Source: Promethearchaeota archaeon
GTDB taxonomy: Archaea; Asgardarchaeota; Lokiarchaeia; Sigyniarchaeales; SOKP01
DNA: 10,884 bases
Reading direction: 5' to 3'
NCBI GenBank assembly: GCA_048938895.1
Contig: JBHLLU010000097.1
Coordinates: 1-10,884 of the forward strand
Part shown: one piece after another, positions 1 to 8,104 of the stretch
How the letters are laid out: each line of letters starts with the position of its first letter
How positions within the stretch are numbered: position 1 is the stretch's first letter
Notes under the pieces: generated by a model
The model's database searches: none
The model's input: only the letters and a program-made list of their open reading frames with translations
Told to the model about the DNA's origin: nothing
Program-made: the position numbers and the translations under genes

Positions 1-1536
1 AAAGGAGTATTTATTCATATATTTGGAAAACTAAAAACAGCAAATTTATTTTTTAAACTAATGAGTCCATTTGCTCGGGGAGGGTATGAGAGCTTATTAC
101 TTTCTTTAGTTACTGAATCGAGTGTAAATTTGACCCTAATGCTTGCTAACGAACTTTTGTCGGGATTTGCTCAATTTATTATAAAATTAAAGGATGCCTA
201 TAGAGCATTTGATCATGAACCTAAGAATTTTAAAGCAGATCCAAATAAAAGGCATGAAATTAGAAATTTTTTCTTTTCCTATTTTGAGTCGATTAAGCCT
301 GTAATAAAAACTTTAGAAATGGCTGAAAAAAGATATCAAGCATTGTTTAAAGCTGCTAAAGATGCTATTTTCATAATGAATCGAGATTCTGGAGTAATAA
401 TTGATGTGAATTTGGAAGGGGAACAATTAGTAGAAAAAACAAAAGAAGAGATTGTTGGTATAAAAGCTTTAGGTCTAGAATTATTTGATGAGGGTTTAGT
501 TGATCAAAATATGGTTAAACATTTAATCAATCAACCCCCACCAATTATTTCCAGGACAAAAAAGTCTACAAATAAACAAATATATTTGGAAGTTAACGTA
601 AATGAAGTTAAACTTGGAGATGAATACTTTATACAATATATGTTTCATGATATAACTGATATACATGTGATTGAGGATAAGCTTAAAAAACAGATTAAAA
701 AAACTGAAATATTGAACAAAATTATAAGTATAGCCAATCAGGCTGATAATCTCTCGGCATTATTAGTTAATATAAGAGATAGCTTTATTAATTTATTTGA
801 ACTAGAAGGATGTGCTATATATTTAATAAATAAATCCCAAAATTTAGCACAAATCAAAGTGCATAAAGGATTCGCTTCTTATTTCATTTTAGAAAATAGT
901 GAATTAGATATTAATTTAGAACCTTATGACATTGTGTTTACAAAGGGAGTTGCACTTATCAACAATAATTTTCCTGATGTTATTAAACAGTTTTTTGAAG
1001 GATTAGAAATAAAATCTACCGCAATAATTCCTCTATTCTCCAAATTTGAGATTATAGGCTCTTTAAATATGATTTTCAAAGAAAATAGAGTGTTATTACC
1101 TGAAGAAATGGAATTGATAATTACGATTGGGTTAGAAATAGGAACAGCTATTGAAAGAATGCAAAATAAGGAAGAATTAAGACATAGCGAAATGCAAAAT
1201 AGTATTCTCTTTGAACATATACCATTCTCGATTTTCAAAATTTCGAACCAAGGGATATTTTTAGATATAAAATTAGATAAAAAAATTGAAAAGCTTATAG
1301 AGCAAATATTTACATCAAAAAAGTTCATAGGTAGACATATTCGGACACTTCTACCATCTGAGACGGTAGAAGAAGCACAAAATAAAATTGAACAAGCACT
1401 TAGTCGTAGAGATCCTCAAGAATTTAGATTCATTTTACCCATAGAGAATAACAAAATAATTTTTCAATCAAATATAATACCTTTCGGAGATAAAGAAGTA
1501 TTAGTTTTTTTACAAAATGTAACCAGAACTTGGTAA
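1..1536 (+). CDS. PAS-GAF-PAS sensor protein with putative N-terminal longin/uDENN-like domain, probably 5'-partial
   Basis: Frame 1 is open from base 1 (KGVFIHIFGKLKTANLFFKL) into the ATG at 61, so the true start probably lies upstream of the window. PAS1 at about 322-660 (EKRYQALFKAAKDAIFIMN...IIDVN...HDITD). GAF at about 700-1160 (S.AIIPLFSKFEIIGSLNM...IGTAIER). PAS2 at about 1180-1533 (ILFEHIPFSIFKISNQG...VFLQNVT). No HisKA, HATPase or GGDEF domain follows. Confidence 0.85.
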   Translation, partial: KGVFIHIFGKLKTANLFFKLMSPFARGGYESLLLSLVTESSVNLTLMLANELLSGFAQFIIKLKDAYRAFDHEPKNFKADPNKRHEIRNFFFSYFESIKPVIKTLEMAEKRYQALFKAAKDAIFIMNRDSGVIIDVNLEGEQLVEKTKEEIVGIKALGLELFDEGLVDQNMVKHLINQPPPIISRTKKSTNKQIYLEVNVNEVKLGDEYFIQYMFHDITDIHVIEDKLKKQIKKTEILNKIISIANQADNLSALLVNIRDSFINLFELEGCAIYLINKSQNLAQIKVHKGFASYFILENSELDINLEPYDIVFTKGVALINNNFPDVIKQFFEGLEIKSTAIIPLFSKFEIIGSLNMIFKENRVLLPEEMELIITIGLEIGTAIERMQNKEELRHSEMQNSILFEHIPFSIFKISNQGIFLDIKLDKKIEKLIEQIFTSKKFIGRHIRTLLPSETVEEAQNKIEQALSRRDPQEFRFILPIENNKIIFQSNIIPFGDKEVLVFLQNVTRTW

Positions 1537-1572
1537 AATTTTTAATAAAATATTCAAGGATTTTAAGTATCA

Positions 1573-2622
1573 TTAAGTAGTAATAAATTTTAACATACTG
1601 CTTATTTTCTCACTTTTAGTTTGAAAATCAATTGCAAGGGAGTCATCTCCTAATTCGAGACATAAATTGCTGATTTTTTCAAAAAGTACTGCAGCTTCAC
1701 TAAATTCACCCCCTTCTAAAGCCTTCTGAGCTTCATTCATTAAATTTTCTCTCTCAAGTAATGGCCTTAATAGTGGTGATACTTCTTTATCCATTTCTAA
1801 TAAATCTGCAATAATGCGTATCATTTTTGAACGATTTTCAACATCTATTGCTACAAAACCATATGTTTTTCTGCCCATTATTCTTTCTATGTCCTCAACT
1901 TTCATCGCATTAGGAACATCTTGCTTGTTAGCAATTACTGCGAATTGAGCATGAGGAACCGCTTTATTTGCTAATTCAATAAAGAATCGGCTTTTTTCGA
2001 TATTTTCCAATGTTGAATCAGTCATTAAGAGAACTGCATCACTCCCAGTTATAAACTTTTCCCATAAAAAATTGAACTCATCTTGTCCAGCAAAGTCCCA
2101 TAATAAGAATGACAACTTACCAATTTTGATGGTTGCTATTTCGCCTGTTATTGTAGGAATATGTCTCATTGGGATTTTATCTGATTTTATTAATCTGGTA
2201 GTAGTAGTTTTCCCAACTCCAGAAAAACCAACAATTGAAATTTTAGGTTTAAGGTTACTGTGAATCTTGTCGACAATTGGGTCTAAGACTTCATTTATTA
2301 CTTCAAAATCTTCCTCTCTGATGCTATCACCATAAAATTCCAAGAAGTCTCTTTTAAATTTTATCAGATGAGATTTGATCTCTTTAAAGTCATCAATTAT
2401 TCCAGACACAAATAGTATTATTAAATCAGAATCTTTATCAATAATATATGAGAGTTTATACTTAAAAACCTCATATGTCCCTATGTTTGTCTCTGACTCT
2501 ATGAGTTCAATGCTTTTTACTATTTGAAATGTATCTGTTAAAAGATTTTTATCTAATCCTTTCGCGTATTTCCTTTGATAGATCAATTTATCATTTAAGA
2601 TTATAAATATTTGGCGTAGCAT
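1573..2622 (-). CDS. Arf-like small GTPase with N-terminal longin-like domain and C-terminal helical (TPR/MIT-like) extension, paralog A
   Basis: G1 GFSGVGKTT, G2 PTIT, G3 WDFAGQ and G4 ANKQD; WDxxGQ plus ANKQD are Arf-family-like. The roughly 120-aa N-terminus (MLRQIFIILNDKLIYQRKY...) has a longin/adaptin-like beta-beta-alpha-beta-beta-beta-alpha pattern, judged by eye. The C-terminus is amphipathic helices (EAQKALEGGEFSEAAVLFEKISNL). Confidence 0.9.
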   Translation of the reverse strand: MLRQIFIILNDKLIYQRKYAKGLDKNLLTDTFQIVKSIELIESETNIGTYEVFKYKLSYIIDKDSDLIILFVSGIIDDFKEIKSHLIKFKRDFLEFYGDSIREEDFEVINEVLDPIVDKIHSNLKPKISIVGFSGVGKTTTTRLIKSDKIPMRHIPTITGEIATIKIGKLSFLLWDFAGQDEFNFLWEKFITGSDAVLLMTDSTLENIEKSRFFIELANKAVPHAQFAVIANKQDVPNAMKVEDIERIMGRKTYGFVAIDVENRSKMIRIIADLLEMDKEVSPLLRPLLERENLMNEAQKALEGGEFSEAAVLFEKISNLCLELGDDSLAIDFQTKSEKISSMLKFITT

Positions 2623-2647
2623 CTTAATACCTTATTATTCCATTATC

Positions 2648-2657
2648 TATATAAAAA
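2648..2657 (-). promoter_or_regulatory. Candidate archaeal TATA box for GTPase paralog A
   Basis: The minus strand reads TTTTTATATA 26-35 nt upstream of the ATG at 2622, a spacing compatible with a leaderless or short-leader transcript. The AT-rich background weakens this. Confidence 0.35.
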
Positions 2658-2742
2658 TCTATTAATATAAATTCTCCTTTCATTCATCAAATATCCTAAT
2701 TTAATGAAGATATAAGGTGGTTTTAATGATTCATTTGATCTT

Positions 2743-2793
2743 AAAAAATCTTTAAAAAAACTACCAGAATCTGATATCAAAGCTATAAAAAAA
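2743..2793 (-). terminator. Candidate oligo-T terminator signals downstream of paralog B
   Basis: Minus-strand T7 (2787-2793), T7 (2754-2760) and T6 (2743-2748) runs follow the stop at 2811. Confidence 0.35.
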
Positions 2794-2810
2794 CTCGTTA
2801 ATATCTAACT

Positions 2811-3863
2811 TCATGAACTAGTCAGAGATTTTAGCATGCTATTTATTTTCTCACTTTTGCTTTGAAAATCAATAGCAAGAGAATCATCTCCTAATTCGAG
2901 ACATAAATTGCTGATTTTTTCAAAAAGTAAAACAGCATCGCTAAATTTTCCCCCTTCTAAAGCCTTTTGGGCTTCATCCATTAAATTTTCTCTCTCAAGT
3001 AAGGGTTTTAATAATGGAGATACTTTAGTGTCCATATCTAATAAATCTGCTATAATTCGTATCATTTTTGGACGATTTTCAACGTCTATTGCTATGAATC
3101 CATATGTTTTATTGCCCATTAATCTTTCTATCTCCCCTACTTTCATTGCATTAGGTAAGTCCTGTTTATTAGCGATCACAGCGAATCGTGCATAAGGAAC
3201 TGCCTTATTAACTAATTCAATAAAGAATCGGCTTTTTTCGAGGTTTTCCAAGGTTGAATCAGTCATTAAGAGCACCGCATCACTTCCTCTTATAAATTTT
3301 TCCCATAAAAAATCGAATTGATCCTGTCCTGCGAAATCCCATAAAAAGAAAGATAATTTACCTATTTTGATGGTCGCGACTTCACCTGTTATTGTAGGTA
3401 TATGTTGCATTGGTATTTCTTCTGATTTTATTAATCTGGTAGTAGTTGTTTTCCCCACCCCTGAAAACCCAACAATCGAAATTTTTGGCTTTAAATTTCT
3501 ATGTATGGAATCTACAATAGGATCTAAAACTTCAGCAATAATTTCAAAACCATCTTCTTTAAGACTCTCACCGTAAAATTCCAAGAATTCTTTTCGGAAT
3601 TTTTTTAGTTGAGGTTCTATATCTTTAAAATCATCCCCTAATCCAGAAACGAATAATATTACTAAATCTGAATCATCATCAACAATATAAGAAAGTTTAT
3701 ACTCAAAAAATTCATAAATTCCTGTTTCAGTCCCAAATTTAGAAAGCGCCATCTTTTTAACTTTTTGATAAACACTTGTAAATAAGGAAGTATCTAATCC
3801 CTTAGCATAACTCCTCTGATAACCTAATTTGTCGTTTAATATTATAAAAACTTGGCGCAGCAT
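2811..3863 (-). CDS. Arf-like small GTPase with N-terminal longin-like domain and C-terminal helical extension, paralog B
   Basis: Same G motifs as paralog A (GFSGVGKTT, PTIT, WDFAGQ, ANKQD). It aligns to A without gaps at about 78% amino-acid identity by manual count. Confidence 0.9.
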   Translation of the reverse strand: MLRQVFIILNDKLGYQRSYAKGLDTSLFTSVYQKVKKMALSKFGTETGIYEFFEYKLSYIVDDDSDLVILFVSGLGDDFKDIEPQLKKFRKEFLEFYGESLKEDGFEIIAEVLDPIVDSIHRNLKPKISIVGFSGVGKTTTTRLIKSEEIPMQHIPTITGEVATIKIGKLSFFLWDFAGQDQFDFLWEKFIRGSDAVLLMTDSTLENLEKSRFFIELVNKAVPYARFAVIANKQDLPNAMKVGEIERLMGNKTYGFIAIDVENRPKMIRIIADLLDMDTKVSPLLKPLLERENLMDEAQKALEGGKFSDAVLLFEKISNLCLELGDDSLAIDFQSKSEKINSMLKSLTSS

Positions 3864-3902
3864 ATTATGATTCTAATATTCTATTATGTTCGTATAAAAT
3901 AA

Positions 3903-4805
3903 TTAATTTAAATCCTTCTTTAATTCATCTAATATCTTAATCATATCTTCCTTTTCTAAAGTTTCAGAAAAAATTATAATATATTTAAAACTAGGATTAT
4001 GGTTATCAACATTTGTTATCACTCTATTAAATAATTTAGGCCCTAGACTCACAACATTGCTCTTAATTGAAACTAGTTCTGAAGATTTACTAATATTGTA
4101 AACATCTTCATATAAGTAGTATAATATGTTCGTGTCAAAATCTTCTGATATTTCTTGAATTATAAGGTAATTATCTTGATTTGTAACAAAACAACTTGTT
4201 TTTGAAGAATTCTGTAATTTATTCTTGATATTTTCTTTCAATGTCGAAGTATTTTCTGTGAAATTACTAATTGTATTTGAAATGGCATTATAAGTTGTAT
4301 AAATTAAGTTAGGGTGAAGGCTTGTAAAATAAAGGGGGAGTTCTTCAGGAAGTTCTAGCTGCTTTATTATTTGCTTTCGTATAAAAGAGAGTAGTGTTCC
4401 TATCTTTTTCTTAATTATTAGGTCAATTTTGTGTAAAAATAATACGATTTTCGCGCCAAAATCATGTTTTTTATTAATTTCATAGATTTTTCTAATATCA
4501 TCAATAATATCTTGAGAATCTGATATCCATGTAGGATAATCAAATACGTATATGATAGCCCCTGCATCTCCAAATGCTAATATCTGTTTTTGTTCATCTT
4601 GTAAAATAATAGGTAATGATTGACCTGGAGCATCTATTAAACTAACTTTAGAATCCATAAATTGATGAACTGAGTATTTAATTCCAATTGTAGCTTCAAG
4701 AGGGAAGAGGATTAAATCACTTGGATCTTCTCCCTCAAATATGACTTTTTTGATCGTTGTTTTACCCATACTAGGTTTTCCGATTAAACTCACTTTAGTA
4801 GCCAT
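3903..4805 (-). CDS. Rag/Gtr-family GTPase with putative C-terminal roadblock-like domain
   Basis: G1 GKPSMGKTT followed by IKKVIF, switch I LEAT, G3 DAPGQ, then F..AGAIIYVFD, G4 HKID (His in G4 is a Rag hallmark) and G5 FTSL followed by TYNAIS. The roughly 115-aa alpha/beta C-terminal extension sits where Rag GTPases carry the roadblock domain. Confidence 0.85.
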   Translation of the reverse strand: MATKVSLIGKPSMGKTTIKKVIFEGEDPSDLILFPLEATIGIKYSVHQFMDSKVSLIDAPGQSLPIILQDEQKQILAFGDAGAIIYVFDYPTWISDSQDIIDDIRKIYEINKKHDFGAKIVLFLHKIDLIIKKKIGTLLSFIRKQIIKQLELPEELPLYFTSLHPNLIYTTYNAISNTISNFTENTSTLKENIKNKLQNSSKTSCFVTNQDNYLIIQEISEDFDTNILYYLYEDVYNISKSSELVSIKSNVVSLGPKLFNRVITNVDNHNPSFKYIIIFSETLEKEDMIKILDELKKDLN

Positions 4806-4947: not shown

Positions 4948-6186
4948 TTATATTCTGGAAGCAATTAAATCAATAATATCAATAACATCAATTATGTCAT
5001 TGATTTCTTGACCATATTCATCATATGTTGATTTTAAATTGCCTATACAAAAAGGGCAACTGGTAGTTAAGATCTCAGCTCCAGAATCTATGGCTTCTTT
5101 AATTCTTTCTTTTGCTATTCCCTTAGCTAAATCTGGATATTGACTTTTTACCCCTCCTCCAGCACCACAACACCAAGAATGAGAACGGTTCCTTTTCATC
5201 TCAATTAATTCTAAGTTGGGGATCTTCATTAAAACTTCTCGTGGTATTTCATATAAATTCATATGACGTCCCAAATGACACGGATCATGGTATGTGACTT
5301 TTAATAGTTCATTCTCATGAGGTTTAAATGGAATTTGATTGTTGTTGAGAAGGTCAATTAATATTTCTGTAATATGCTTTACTTCAAAGGGTAATTTTAT
5401 TCCCAAAATCTCAGGATAATCTTTTTTTAAGGTTCGATAACAGCCTGCGCAAGCGGTAAATACTGTTTTAGCACCCATATTCTCTAGAAGTTTAAAATTA
5501 TGTCTCATCATATTTTCTCCGCTTTCACCGACTCTCAATCCTATCGAACCACAACACCATTCATCTTTTGATACTGCAATTTCAATTTCAGCAGCCTGGA
5601 AAATTTTCATCATATTTTTCAAAGTATTCACCTGTCGTAAAGGCATTGTACATCCCCCGAAGAACACTAAATCCCCTTTTTCTTTAATATTTGGGAATGA
5701 AGAGATCCAATCAAATTTTTTCCCTTGTTCTTCTCCATACGGATTTTTTATATCTACGTTATTCATCCACTCAATCAGGGAAGCATGCTTTTCAAGCGGA
5801 GCAAATCCTGCTTTCACTAAATCTTTTCGTAATGCATTCCATACTTTACAATGATCAATCCATTTAGAGATATTTAAAACCACATTATCATCCGATTGGT
5901 GACAAGTTTCAGTGCAATTACCACATTCAGTGCACTGATATACAAATTCTGCTAACTCTCTACTTAATGGGATTGAACCTTTTAATATACTTTTTAACAC
6001 ACTCATCCTCCCTCTTGAAAAGTATATCTCAAATGCTTCTTCTCCTAAGGCTTCTTTCACAGGACAGGTCAAATCTATACCTACCATAGGATTTATGGCA
6101 AAACCACATTCTCCACACCCCATACATGAAAATATTGCGTTCCATTCTTTTTTCAAGTTTTCTAATTCAGTCATGAGTTCAATCAC
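4948..6186 (-). CDS. Fe-S oxidoreductase, GlcF/HdrD-like (two 4Fe-4S ferredoxin motifs plus two CCG domains)
   Basis: CMGCGEC...CP and CTECGNCTETC ferredoxin motifs. CCG-domain motifs FFGGC, EWCCGS, ACAGC, YHDPCHLGR, WCCGAGGG and TSCPFC. It overlaps the upstream gene by 8 nt; an alternative start is the ATG at 6174. Confidence 0.92.
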   Translation of the reverse strand: MIELMTELENLKKEWNAIFSCMGCGECGFAINPMVGIDLTCPVKEALGEEAFEIYFSRGRMSVLKSILKGSIPLSRELAEFVYQCTECGNCTETCHQSDDNVVLNISKWIDHCKVWNALRKDLVKAGFAPLEKHASLIEWMNNVDIKNPYGEEQGKKFDWISSFPNIKEKGDLVFFGGCTMPLRQVNTLKNMMKIFQAAEIEIAVSKDEWCCGSIGLRVGESGENMMRHNFKLLENMGAKTVFTACAGCYRTLKKDYPEILGIKLPFEVKHITEILIDLLNNNQIPFKPHENELLKVTYHDPCHLGRHMNLYEIPREVLMKIPNLELIEMKRNRSHSWCCGAGGGVKSQYPDLAKGIAKERIKEAIDSGAEILTTSCPFCIGNLKSTYDEYGQEINDIIDVIDIIDLIASRI

Positions 6187-7690
6187 CTTTTAAATTGAAT
6201 TTACCTCTACTTAAAATATACTTTGGATCAAGAATTTTCTTGATTGACTTCATAAGATTATAATATTCTTGTGAGTAAGCACCAATCTCAACCATAAGGC
6301 TTGATGGGAGGGTTCCAAACATATAATATTGTACTCCATGCTTGAACATTCTAATCAGCAATGATTTCCATAATTTTAGATTAAGATCATCAATAATCTC
6401 ATGCACTCTGCCATCATGATAACTGGAAGAAGTATTAAAGCCTACTGTATATTCTACATTACTTCCATCGATTAGTGCTATCGGCCCAGATCCACTCATA
6501 ATAACAAGATTTCCTGTGATATCTGAGATTTGATTCATATCTTCTCTATGTTCATTTTCCCAGGTTTGTGTATCTAAAAATAATTCAGGAAGCATACCAG
6601 CGGGAGTGAAACATTCAGCTGTAAATGGTTCGCTCGCGGCTACTAATCCCCAGAGATTATGATATAAGTGCCAGGGATTTTCATATTGCCATTTCGCGAA
6701 ATTACCATCTGAAATTTCTGGTCCTATTTCCTCTGATTTCTTATTTAGAAATATCTTATCTAATTGTTTAACTCTTTCAGATAGCTCTATTTCAGTGTTA
6801 GCTTCAATAGTATAAAAAAGGATTCCTCGTTTTCTTTTTAAATTGTCCCATAATGGAAATACGCCTAGAGGTGCTGAAGTAGCCACAATTAACTGAGGTA
6901 TGTAGATTGCATCAAAAACATCAATCCCTTTCCTTCTAATTTCCATTAAAATTTGAGATGCTGCCTCTACATCCTTACGTGGTAATAAATAAGTTTTATA
7001 TTCAGCAAAAGGAGGTCTTGGAAACACTTGTAATGATATTTTTGTTTTTACACCGTAAATTCCATTATCACCACAAAAGAGTCCTGCTAGATCTGGACCA
7101 TTCCCCGTCCGATTGAAAGGAAATTTCGAAAATATGTTTGCTTGTGAACCTGTTTCAATAATGTCACCTGTTGGTAGAACAACTTCTAATGACACTAATT
7201 GATTTGTACAAGCACCATATTTAGCACATCCACCGGCTCCAACTGAATGATGAGAGATTCCACCTCCTATTGAGGCAGTCAAACCAGATCCTGGTCCTAA
7301 ACACCCGGTATAAAGTCCAAACTGAGATAGATAGTCATTTAATGCTCCCCAGGAAATACCTGCTTCAGCAGTTATTATAAGATTATCCTGATCCAAATTT
7401 ATAATATTACTCATTCTTTTCATGTCTAAAAGAATCCCTGTATTTCCATCCGCAATACTGCCCCCCCATTCACAACAACCCCCTCCACGTTGAATTACAG
7501 GTATGTTTTCTTCATTTGCAATTTTGAGAACTTCTGAAATTTCACTTGCATCTTTAGGACGAATAACAATATCAGGAACGCCTTGTAAAACGGGATTTAC
7601 ATTACGGGAATATGCATGGCGTACATAAAGATCTTTTGATATAAATCGTTTTGACACAATTTTTTCTAATTTATGAAATGTATCTGACAT
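6179..7690 (-). CDS. FAD-binding oxidoreductase, VAO/PCMH-type (GlcD/D-lactate dehydrogenase-like), substrate unknown
   Basis: PDIVIRP...E.SEVLKIANEENIPVIQRGGG, AEAGI, ASIGG, KYG...SLEVVLPTGDII, GPDLAGLFCGDNGIYGVKT and a C-terminal LDPKYILSRGK. It is paired with a GlcF-like gene. Confidence 0.9.
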   Translation of the reverse strand: MSDTFHKLEKIVSKRFISKDLYVRHAYSRNVNPVLQGVPDIVIRPKDASEISEVLKIANEENIPVIQRGGGCCEWGGSIADGNTGILLDMKRMSNIINLDQDNLIITAEAGISWGALNDYLSQFGLYTGCLGPGSGLTASIGGGISHHSVGAGGCAKYGACTNQLVSLEVVLPTGDIIETGSQANIFSKFPFNRTGNGPDLAGLFCGDNGIYGVKTKISLQVFPRPPFAEYKTYLLPRKDVEAASQILMEIRRKGIDVFDAIYIPQLIVATSAPLGVFPLWDNLKRKRGILFYTIEANTEIELSERVKQLDKIFLNKKSEEIGPEISDGNFAKWQYENPWHLYHNLWGLVAASEPFTAECFTPAGMLPELFLDTQTWENEHREDMNQISDITGNLVIMSGSGPIALIDGSNVEYTVGFNTSSSYHDGRVHEIIDDLNLKLWKSLLIRMFKHGVQYYMFGTLPSSLMVEIGAYSQEYYNLMKSIKKILDPKYILSRGKFNLKGD

Positions 7691-7819: not shown

Positions 7820-8104
7820 ATGTATTATAGGGGATACATTTTAATAAGATTGAGAGAAATTGGAACTGAATGGGAGGTTGTTAAAAAATTAACAGGCTTA
7901 CATTCCACAGAACCGGGTGATGATTGGAAGATAACATATGTTACTCCAGTCTATGGCGGATGGGATATTATCATTGAATGTTCTTTTTCTAAACTTAAAG
8001 ATTTAGACAAAATAGTTGCTTTTTGCAGAGTTGATAAAGATTTATCATTATGGATTGAAGAAACAACTACTTTAATGGGATCAAAAAGAGATTTTCCTGA
8101 TTAG
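7820..8104 (+). CDS. Stand-alone Lrp/AsnC ligand-binding (RAM) domain protein, no HTH
   Basis: GYILIRL...EVVKKL...VYGGWDIIIEC...DLDKIV...IEETTTLM matches the AsnC C-terminal domain pattern (V.G.[YW]D, T.T). It is only 94 aa long. Confidence 0.75.
   Translation: MYYRGYILIRLREIGTEWEVVKKLTGLHSTEPGDDWKITYVTPVYGGWDIIIECSFSKLKDLDKIVAFCRVDKDLSLWIEETTTLMGSKRDFPD

Follow-up and report, generated by a model that had tools for sequence, protein, structure and literature searches.

Organization of the locus

The stretch of DNA analysed here (the window; 10,884 nucleotides, nt) is contig JBHLLU010000097.1 in the genome assembly of an archaeon of the order Sigyniarchaeales (Asgardarchaeota, Lokiarchaeia; GCA_048938895.1). 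It represents one entire contig (C42) of this genome (G000; 4.65 Mb in 174 contigs), and the part of it that was studied has a G+C content of about 28-31%. The subject is an open reading frame (ORF), ORF1, which encodes a PAS-GAF-PAS sensor protein with an N-terminal longin domain, together with three genes for small GTPases that converge on it, namely two with a longin and an Arf-like G domain (GTPases A and B) and one Rag-like. The longin fold with its motifs, the lack of another output domain, the intact catalytic motifs of the GTPases and the kept neighbourhood are direct observations; a role of ORF1 as a sensor-gated GTPase-activating protein (GAP) for its neighbours is proposed further below. 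The features are as follows (coordinates of the window; aa, amino acids).

1..1536, plus strand: ORF1, codons 43-553 of 553; contig C33 carries the first 42 codons, TTG start included
1..333, plus strand: remainder of the longin domain (strands 3-5, helices) and long linker helix, full-length aa 43-153 (AlphaFold2 [AF2] model, fold searches)
76..78, plus strand: codon of Arg68 (window aa 26), candidate arginine finger, motif FARGG in the beta4-beta5 loop (alignments, AF2 model)
331..645, plus strand: PAS domain A (Pfam PAS, 2.1e-6; NCBIfam sensory_box, 3.6e-12)
748..1158, plus strand: GAF domain (Pfam GAF_3, 9.1e-6, and GAF_2, 2.3e-5, both slightly below the curated cut-offs)
1309..1527, plus strand: Pfam-matched part of PAS domain B (PAS_9, 8.1e-9); the protein ends 3 codons on
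1537..1572, no strand: AT-rich spacer of 36 nt between the converging stop codons
1573..2622, minus strand: GTPase A, 349 aa, with longin (aa 1 to about 120), Arf-like G domain and C-terminal helical tail (Pfam Arf, 5.9e-19)
2811..3863, minus strand: GTPase B, 350 aa, with classical longin (aa 1-126), Arf-like G domain and three-helix tail (aa 285-348) (Pfam Arf, 1.1e-18)
3864..3902, no strand: spacer of 39 nt between the Rag-like gene and the GTPase B gene, which run in the same direction
3903..4805, minus strand: Rag-like GTPase, 300 aa, with G domain (DAPGQ, HKID) and C-terminal domain of about 120 aa (Pfam Gtr1_RagA, 2.2e-23)

The 5' end of ORF1 is open at window position 1, and the missing start was located on contig C33. 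C33 and the window share an exact end overlap of 77 nt, and this 77-mer is absent from every other contig of the genome; the joined frame comprises 553 aa and begins with a TTG codon, 125 nt before window position 1. The join is considered sound because a database protein (P0001) also has 553 aa and is 98% identical to ORF1 over the matched N-terminal query region; P0001 was taken as the full-length stand-in for ORF1. The shared end resembles an assembler k-mer overlap, and the break falls inside the N-domain of ORF1. Paralogous N-domain DNA on contig C150 (75-79% identity over short stretches) may have caused the contig break.

The domain order of ORF1 is N-terminal longin, helical linker, PAS, GAF and PAS, with Pfam and NCBIfam matches at window aa 111-215 (PAS), 250-386 (GAF) and 437-509 (PAS); the GAF domain is also seen in the orthologues. 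No kinase, receiver or other output domain and no DNA-binding domain was found with Pfam and NCBIfam in ORF1 or in its orthologues of 552-554 aa. The initial annotation, which had described a PAS-GAF-PAS protein without conventional output that converges across 36 nt on genes for two longin-Arf-like GTPases and one Rag-like GTPase, is correct in every point (ends at 1536 and 1573; Pfam Arf and Gtr1_RagA), and it also holds for the joined frame of 553 aa. Three GTPase genes directly behind ORF1 are not expected by chance, given 53 high-scoring segment pairs (HSPs) for G domains (tblastn) in 4.65 Mb.

The longin domain of ORF1 and the neighbouring GTPases

The AF2 model of residues 1-154 of P0001 (confidence score pLDDT 92.5) is a longin, as had been claimed for the N-domain from the window alone. 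It comprises strands at residues 4-11 and 15-22, helices at 28-39, strands at 45-50, 53-63 and 71-81, and a helix at 88-104, and the order of elements is strand-strand-helix-strand-strand-strand-helix-helix. With Foldseek, NPRL2 chains of the GATOR1 complex ranked first (3.9e-6 to 1.9e-4), followed by yeast Npr2, a solved Lokiarchaeial longin, chains of FLCN complexes, and Lst4. With VIA-align, the best match was FLCN (Z 13.6; root-mean-square deviation 2.8; 136 residues aligned), and the Lokiarchaeial longin 8yqg_B was second-best (Z 13.2), followed by NPRL2 (12.5) and Npr2 (11.6); Sec22b, Lst4, Ykt6, adaptin sigma and DENND1 gave Z values of at most 10.6, so that the margin of FLCN and NPRL2 over other longins is only 1-3 Z units. 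The NPRL2 chain was aligned at 6..144 to residues 1..145 of the model, a range that is compatible with NPRL2 Arg78. On the model, the N-domain of ORF1 looks like a longin of the FLCN/NPRL2 kind.

The catalytic longins of the eukaryotic GAP complexes are NPRL2 (in GATOR1, for RagA/B), FLCN (with FNIP, for RagC/D) and SMCR8 (with C9orf72, for Arf1). A Gly-Pro motif combined with an arginine finger has been reported to be specific to GAP-type longins, and both occur in some Asgard longins (Traffic 2025, PMC12290439); the geometry of the SMCR8 arginine finger on Arf1 has been solved (PMC8213707). ORF1 has the Gly-Pro motif and, in Arg68, a candidate for the arginine finger. The Gly-Pro motif (FDPLYGP, full-length residues 10-16) is located at the start of strand 2, is encoded on C33, and is present in P0001; in an alignment of 12 N-domain sequences, G15 is invariant and P16 is at least 90% conserved, and the motif is kept in most of 30 aligned family members, with a few members of the wider family lacking it. 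The only invariant columns of the 30-member alignment are Asn57 and Arg68, the latter present in 30 of 30 family members and in 12 of 12 sequences of the N-domain alignment. In the AF2 model, Arg68 is placed in the loop between strands 4 and 5, and from the topology of the sheet this loop would lie next to the loop between strands 1 and 2.

When the first 112 residues encoded in the window were used as query, a database search found 147 proteins; nearly all of the 120 matches listed are 552-554 aa long, P0001 and a protein of Lokiarchaeum GC14_75 included. With phmmer, 76 relatives of the N-domain were found among 1.84 billion representatives; the domain is N-terminal in all 76. The contexts, from Pfam scans of 73 of the 76, are longin-PAS(n)(-GAF) with or without HisKA-HATPase_c, longin-Arf-like GTPase-PAS...-HATPase_c, longin-Arf-like GTPase alone, and short stand-alone proteins; the Arf-like G domain follows immediately after the longin in many of the 73. 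A distant relative, P0176, matches the Pfam Folliculin model at 7.9e-4, which is below the cut-off. Four longin-GTPase fusions (P0176, P0177, P0178 and P0184) have a seemingly degenerate P-loop or DxxG when their alignment is inspected by eye, and may be pseudo-GTPases. A profile of the 30 family members was also searched against PDB sequences; it was flooded with Arf matches, because the alignment contains fused G domains, and was uninformative on the longin.

The longins of the neighbouring GTPases are of another class. The Pfam Arf matches span aa 117-253 in GTPase A and 123-253 in GTPase B, and the N-terminal 116-122 aa or so are unmatched. Residues 1-126 of GTPase B, taken from an AF2 model with a pLDDT of only 71, gave VIA-align matches to the VAMP7 longin (Z 14.3), sedlin (13.5), AP2 (13.4), SRX (11.7) and Lst4 (10.6), and neither FLCN nor NPRL2 was among the best 50; the GTPases' own longins are thus modelled as ordinary SNARE/sedlin/adaptin-type longins. 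A profile comparison of the ORF1 N-domain with the GTPase N-domain (hhalign) returned a probability of 1.3%, so the two are not detectably related by sequence. As stated by the initial annotation, the beta4-beta5 loop of these longins lacks Arg (DDDSD in GTPase B, DKDSD in GTPase A). GTPases A and B are 78% identical; A is derived from B by a recent tandem duplication, and among the loci examined the extra copy was seen only in G000 and in one other genome (G002). For the C-terminal three-helix tail of GTPase B (aa 285-348), no usable match was found in the protein atlas.

In GTPase B, the P-loop, WDFAGQ and NKQD are conserved, and all G motifs are invariant in the 31 orthologues. The Rag-like GTPase matches Gtr1_RagA over aa 4-235 with 83.3 bits (cut-off 22); 28 aligned sequences show no variation in its P-loop, DAPGQ and HKID columns, and its C-terminal part of about 120 aa is conserved. 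The HKxD motif is typical of Rag proteins. Since the P-loop, the switch threonine, the DxxGQ glutamine and the N/HKxD motif are kept in all aligned orthologues of both types, both GTPases look, by their sequences, like active switches that would need an Arg supplied in trans. The Rag-like gene and the gene for GTPase B are likely to form a two-gene operon. A complex prediction for GTPase B, the Rag-like GTPase and residues 1-154 of an ORF1-family protein, run without controls, gave a score of 0.00, which speaks neither for nor against binding.

Conservation of the neighbourhood

Of 24 other genomes sampled within the genus, 16 have a full-length orthologue of ORF1, and none was found in 16 genomes from other families of the order. 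For the analysis of synteny, 31 distinct orthologous loci were used, which are 58-85% identical to the window part of ORF1; in 29 of them, the sequence continues for at least 1 kb past ORF1. A profile search of genome contigs with the N-domain alignment returned only 27 orthologous loci, as the pattern was too narrow for paralogues.

The converging longin-GTPase gene is the next gene in 28 of the 29 loci; in the remaining one, the next recognisable gene is Rag-like and lies 618 nt off. The distance between ORF1 and the GTPase gene ranges in the orthologues from an overlap of 12 nt to a gap of 48 nt, with one at 210 nt. The Rag-like gene comes after it in 26 of the 27 loci that provide enough room, and the exception also has a truncated GTPase gene. 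Tandem duplications of the GTPase pair are found in some genomes, and a second Rag copy in others. The presence or absence of ORF1 and of the Rag gene agrees in 21 of the 24 genus genomes (both in 13, neither in 8); three have ORF1 without the Rag gene, two of these at contig ends. In one genome, a remnant of ORF1 with stop codons abuts the FAD gene and the GTPases are gone.

The arrangement extends beyond the genus. G097, a genome placed in a different genus, shows it unchanged. In genome G125, from a third genus, a contig starts inside an ORF1-like gene, whose last 141 aa are 43% identical with the same C-terminal end; this gene converges on genes for a longin-GTPase (55%) and a Rag-like GTPase (52%), beyond which the flank differs. 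On a contig of 3.5 kb (L148), a diverged version of the trio lies on a single strand, composed of a Rag-like gene (42%), a longin-GTPase gene (51%) and a gene for a longin-PAS protein of 385 aa (N-domain 41%). Such a longin-PAS protein was found in 1 of 131 genomes in a family-wide search and was not found in a metagenome scan, so the diverged trio rests on this one contig. The adjacency of sensor and GTPase genes is conserved in related genomes (28 of 29 loci, and G125), a point that the initial annotation had put up for checking, with the reservations that the surrounding block is collinear and that a truncated orthologue occurs without the GTPases (see below). In another genus, a gene whose start lies beyond the contig (L189:2-304, plus strand) converges on a Rag-like and longin-GTPase pair; it ends in a histidine-kinase dimerisation hairpin in which the phospho-accepting His is replaced by Tyr (SYELRD).

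Within genome G000, seven ORFs match the N-domain profile. In two of the seven, an Arf-like G domain is part of the same protein; for ORF1 and two others, a GTPase gene lies no more than 2 kb away, in one case directly downstream on the same strand; and one adjoins a LAMTOR3-like roadblock gene; the chance that a random 6.5-kb stretch holds a G domain is about 7% by a rough estimate (53 HSPs, 4.65 Mb). These observations support the view that longins of this class and small GTPases are functionally connected in general.

Three loci of G000 are described individually. At C152:46845-48637 (L191), a gene for a Gly-Pro longin protein of 367 aa is immediately followed, in the same orientation, by a gene for a Ras/Arf-like GTPase of 205 aa, and the two genes are likely to form an operon. 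At C144:24556-26092 (L193), a LAMTOR3/MAPKK1_Int-like roadblock gene (Pfam 1.4e-6), a small ORF and a gene for a longin family member of 140 aa lie on one strand. At C33:77179-79377 (L196), a gene paralogous to those of GTPases A and B (348 aa; Arf, 1.7e-18) and a gene for a protein of 370 aa converge, with about 40 nt between them. The 370-aa protein has no Pfam match, and its N-terminus resembles the longin of longin-Rag-roadblock proteins; the two genes are a second tail-to-tail pair of this kind in the genome.

Proposed function and comparison with known systems

We propose, with a probability of roughly one in three, that ORF1 serves the neighbouring GTPases as a sensor-gated GAP; binding, the substrate, GAP activity and control by the sensor are what we infer. 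ORF1 would be a soluble sensor whose effector is the N-terminal longin of the folliculin/NPRL2 type. The PAS-GAF-PAS array would bind a signal and, via the long linker helix, shift the position or exposure of the longin domain, which would then dock on the Rag-like GTPase, on the longin-Arf-like GTPase, or on both, as encoded tail-to-tail with it. Arg68, next to the Gly-Pro motif, would enter the nucleotide pocket and speed up GTP hydrolysis, and such a signal-gated GAP would be a one-protein counterpart of GATOR1 or FLCN-FNIP. In its most far-reaching form, which we consider rather unlikely, the three genes would form an archaeal forerunner of the GATOR1/FLCN-Rag nutrient switch condensed into one regulator, in which a small-molecule or redox signal gates an arginine-finger longin GAP for a heterodimer of the Rag-like and the longin-Arf-like GTPase.

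Several observations weigh against a sensor-gated GAP. At the sequence level, no Pfam model, including Folliculin and NPR2, matched the N-domain of P0001 or of the window ORF, and a profile of the N-domain only, searched against PDB sequences, gave nothing better than E 0.22. Others concern the neighbourhood, which might reflect inherited gene order only. In that case the longin of ORF1 would have some other partner, which could be another GTPase or the Gly-Pro longin/coiled-coil protein encoded three genes upstream, and the converging GTPase pair would be an independent two-gene unit; we regard this as possible, if doubtful. Because the genes converge, co-transcription is excluded and they are not one operon. 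The whole block of about 12 kb is collinear in the genus (AAA ATPase, longin/coiled-coil gene, FTR, transglutaminase, ORF1, GTPases, often two oxidoreductase genes, a 94-aa ORF, CAAX protease), so that the adjacency could be inherited order, and the GTPases are no more constant as neighbours of ORF1 than the unrelated transglutaminase gene on its upstream side. The match in presence and absence of ORF1 and the Rag gene is explained by single deletions, since the genes are adjacent. Two other genomes of the genus of G125 keep an ORF1 orthologue of 443-445 aa in the old block, without the last PAS domain and with a GNAT gene in place of the GTPases; no Rag orthologue was found in either genome (completeness 98% and 82%). 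The pair of Rag-like and longin-GTPase genes occurs with other neighbours in at least four further genera or paralogous lines, and is an older and wider unit than the trio. Finally, our own narrow hidden Markov models (rather than Pfam) detected no GTPase in the flanks that were fetched for 11 loci of more distant longin-PAS paralogues. Three points speak against inherited order alone: the trio is kept in G125 despite the different flank beyond the Rag gene, the diverged trio of L148 is on one strand, and the Gly-Pro longins of G000 are in or beside GTPase genes far more often than the 7% or so estimated for a random stretch.

The position of the longin in its relatives bears on a second alternative, in which the longin binds the neighbouring GTPases in a capacity other than GAP, as an exchange-factor-like platform, a scaffold, or an effector site that integrates the state of the GTPase with the PAS/GAF signal; in the relatives, the integrated signal would feed a histidine kinase. 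Many of the 73 scanned relatives carry a complete histidine kinase behind the same longin, and they place the longin, or longin and Arf-like G domain, before PAS-HisKA-HATPase_c, which is the usual position of an input. There the longin may be an input and need not be 'the output', a further point against the proposed GAP. The output role that the initial annotation had assigned to the N-domain is thereby weakened; the fold, the motifs and the lack of any other output in ORF1 still speak for it. Longin and roadblock dimers have, in addition, been described mainly as platforms of guanine nucleotide exchange factors (PMC10933270). What argues in the other direction is the Arg of the loop, which is invariant, together with the Gly-Pro motif, features that are described as peculiar to GAP-type longins (PMC12290439). 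ORF1 itself has no kinase that could receive a signal from the GTPases, and we consider a non-GAP role unlikely.

That the N-domain is merely a dimerisation or localisation module of a PAS/GAF protein, unrelated to GTPases, is quite improbable, since an invariant Arg in a surface loop would be left unexplained and GTPases recur as fusion partners or gene neighbours of this domain, although the second-best structural match, 8yqg_B (Z 13.2), is a dimer and PAS/GAF sensors are usually dimers.

The eukaryotic GAP longins are the best structural matches to ORF1; the Gly-Pro motif is common to both, the conserved loop Arg of ORF1 is the candidate counterpart of their catalytic Arg, and Rag- and Arf-like GTPases are at hand in both cases. 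In contrast to them, ORF1 shows no match at the sequence level and has no DENN domain or NPRL2 C-terminal domain. The sensor of ORF1 is part of the same chain, whereas the eukaryotic complexes use separate sensing proteins, and unlike in the eukaryotic heterodimers, a second longin subunit was not identified.

Among archaeal proteins, the closest relatives of the ORF1 N-domain (33-42% identity) are in Lokiarchaeia chains of longin, Arf-like GTPase, PAS, (GAF) and histidine kinase; the G domain is in the same chain in these fusions, whereas ORF1 has none and the GTPases are encoded by separate neighbouring genes. The Asgard proteins described by Liu et al. (bioRxiv 10.1101/2020.10.19.343400) likewise combine an NPRL2-like longin with prokaryotic sensor domains in Loki-type Asgard archaea. 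ORF1 differs from the two-component-type fusions described there in having PAS-GAF-PAS only, without kinase or receiver; the main-text passages on these fusions, Figure 5c and the supplements aside, name no partner GTPase and no neighbourhood. The Asgard Gly-Pro longins of the FLCN/SMCR8 type (PMC12290439) share the pair of motifs and the structural class with ORF1. They are mostly Heimdallarchaeial and were taken from deposited models, and the passages of that paper that deal with them report no sensor fusion and no gene neighbourhood; whether ArfR or Rag is the partner of Asgard GAP-type longins is posed there as an open question.

The longin-GTPase (L-G) and GTPase-roadblock architectures have been catalogued in Asgard archaea (Tran et al. 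2024, PMC10933270); GTPases A and B represent the L-G architecture, and the Rag-like gene fits the class of GTPases with a C-terminal domain. According to the same source, small GTPase genes of strain MK-D1 are generally not in operons with longin or roadblock genes, and gene order rarely helps to match Asgard GTPases to their regulators. In contrast, a pair of Rag-like and L-G genes is kept here beside the gene of a longin sensor. In a literature search, with supplements and figures outside its scope, no paper was found on the longin-PAS architecture together with a GTPase neighbourhood. The protein type, i.e. NPRL2-like longin with two-component-type domains, is thus already in print, and its neighbourhood of Rag-like and longin-GTPase genes was not found described in the texts searched. 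The present analysis contributes four points: how far the synteny argument carries, the existence of truncated and of diverged copies, the older unit of Rag-like and longin-GTPase genes, and the separate class of the GTPases' own longins.

The locus names a small set of proteins, one sensor of 553 aa, one Rag-like and one longin-Arf-like GTPase, all soluble by appearance; sensor and GTPases are kept together in dozens of genomes, and Arg68 is the obvious point mutant. The set bears on which GTPases the Asgard longins of the folliculin/NPRL2 type act on, and whether these longins are GAPs, as raised in PMC12290439. If the proposed GAP is real, longin regulation of the GAP type of Rag- and Arf-like switches predates eukaryotes and was under direct sensor control. 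If the three genes are a forerunner of the nutrient switch, then GAP-type longins, Rag-like GTPases and control by signals were linked before eukaryotes, by prokaryotic sensor domains and not by separate sensor proteins. If it is no GAP, the locus calls for caution against reading eukaryotic functions into Asgard look-alikes.

The other genes around ORF1 and the GTPases are as follows. Three genes upstream of ORF1, contig C33 encodes a protein of 307 aa (C33:2102-3025, i.e. L180:2102-3025, plus strand), which has a longin-like N-terminal stretch with a Gly-Pro motif (EIDQSFGPNI) followed by coiled-coil-like sequence, belongs to no Pfam family, and holds its position in most orthologous loci. 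Judged by its sequence, it could be a second longin subunit; a role as the Arg-less partner subunit was considered and is not claimed, as its orthologues retain an Arg near strand 4. The transglutaminase-like gene beside ORF1 is present in one to three tandem copies across genomes (loci L035-L048 and L079-L105). In the window, positions 4948..7690 (minus strand) encode a CCG/4Fe-4S protein (GlcF/HdrD-like) and an FAD-binding oxidase (GlcD-like), whose genes overlap by 8 nt; this pair was found in some of the orthologous blocks and is missing from others. Positions 7820..8104 (plus strand), beside a CAAX-type protease gene, hold an ORF of 94 aa that has no Pfam or NCBIfam match and is kept at the same place in relatives, with 71-85% identity.

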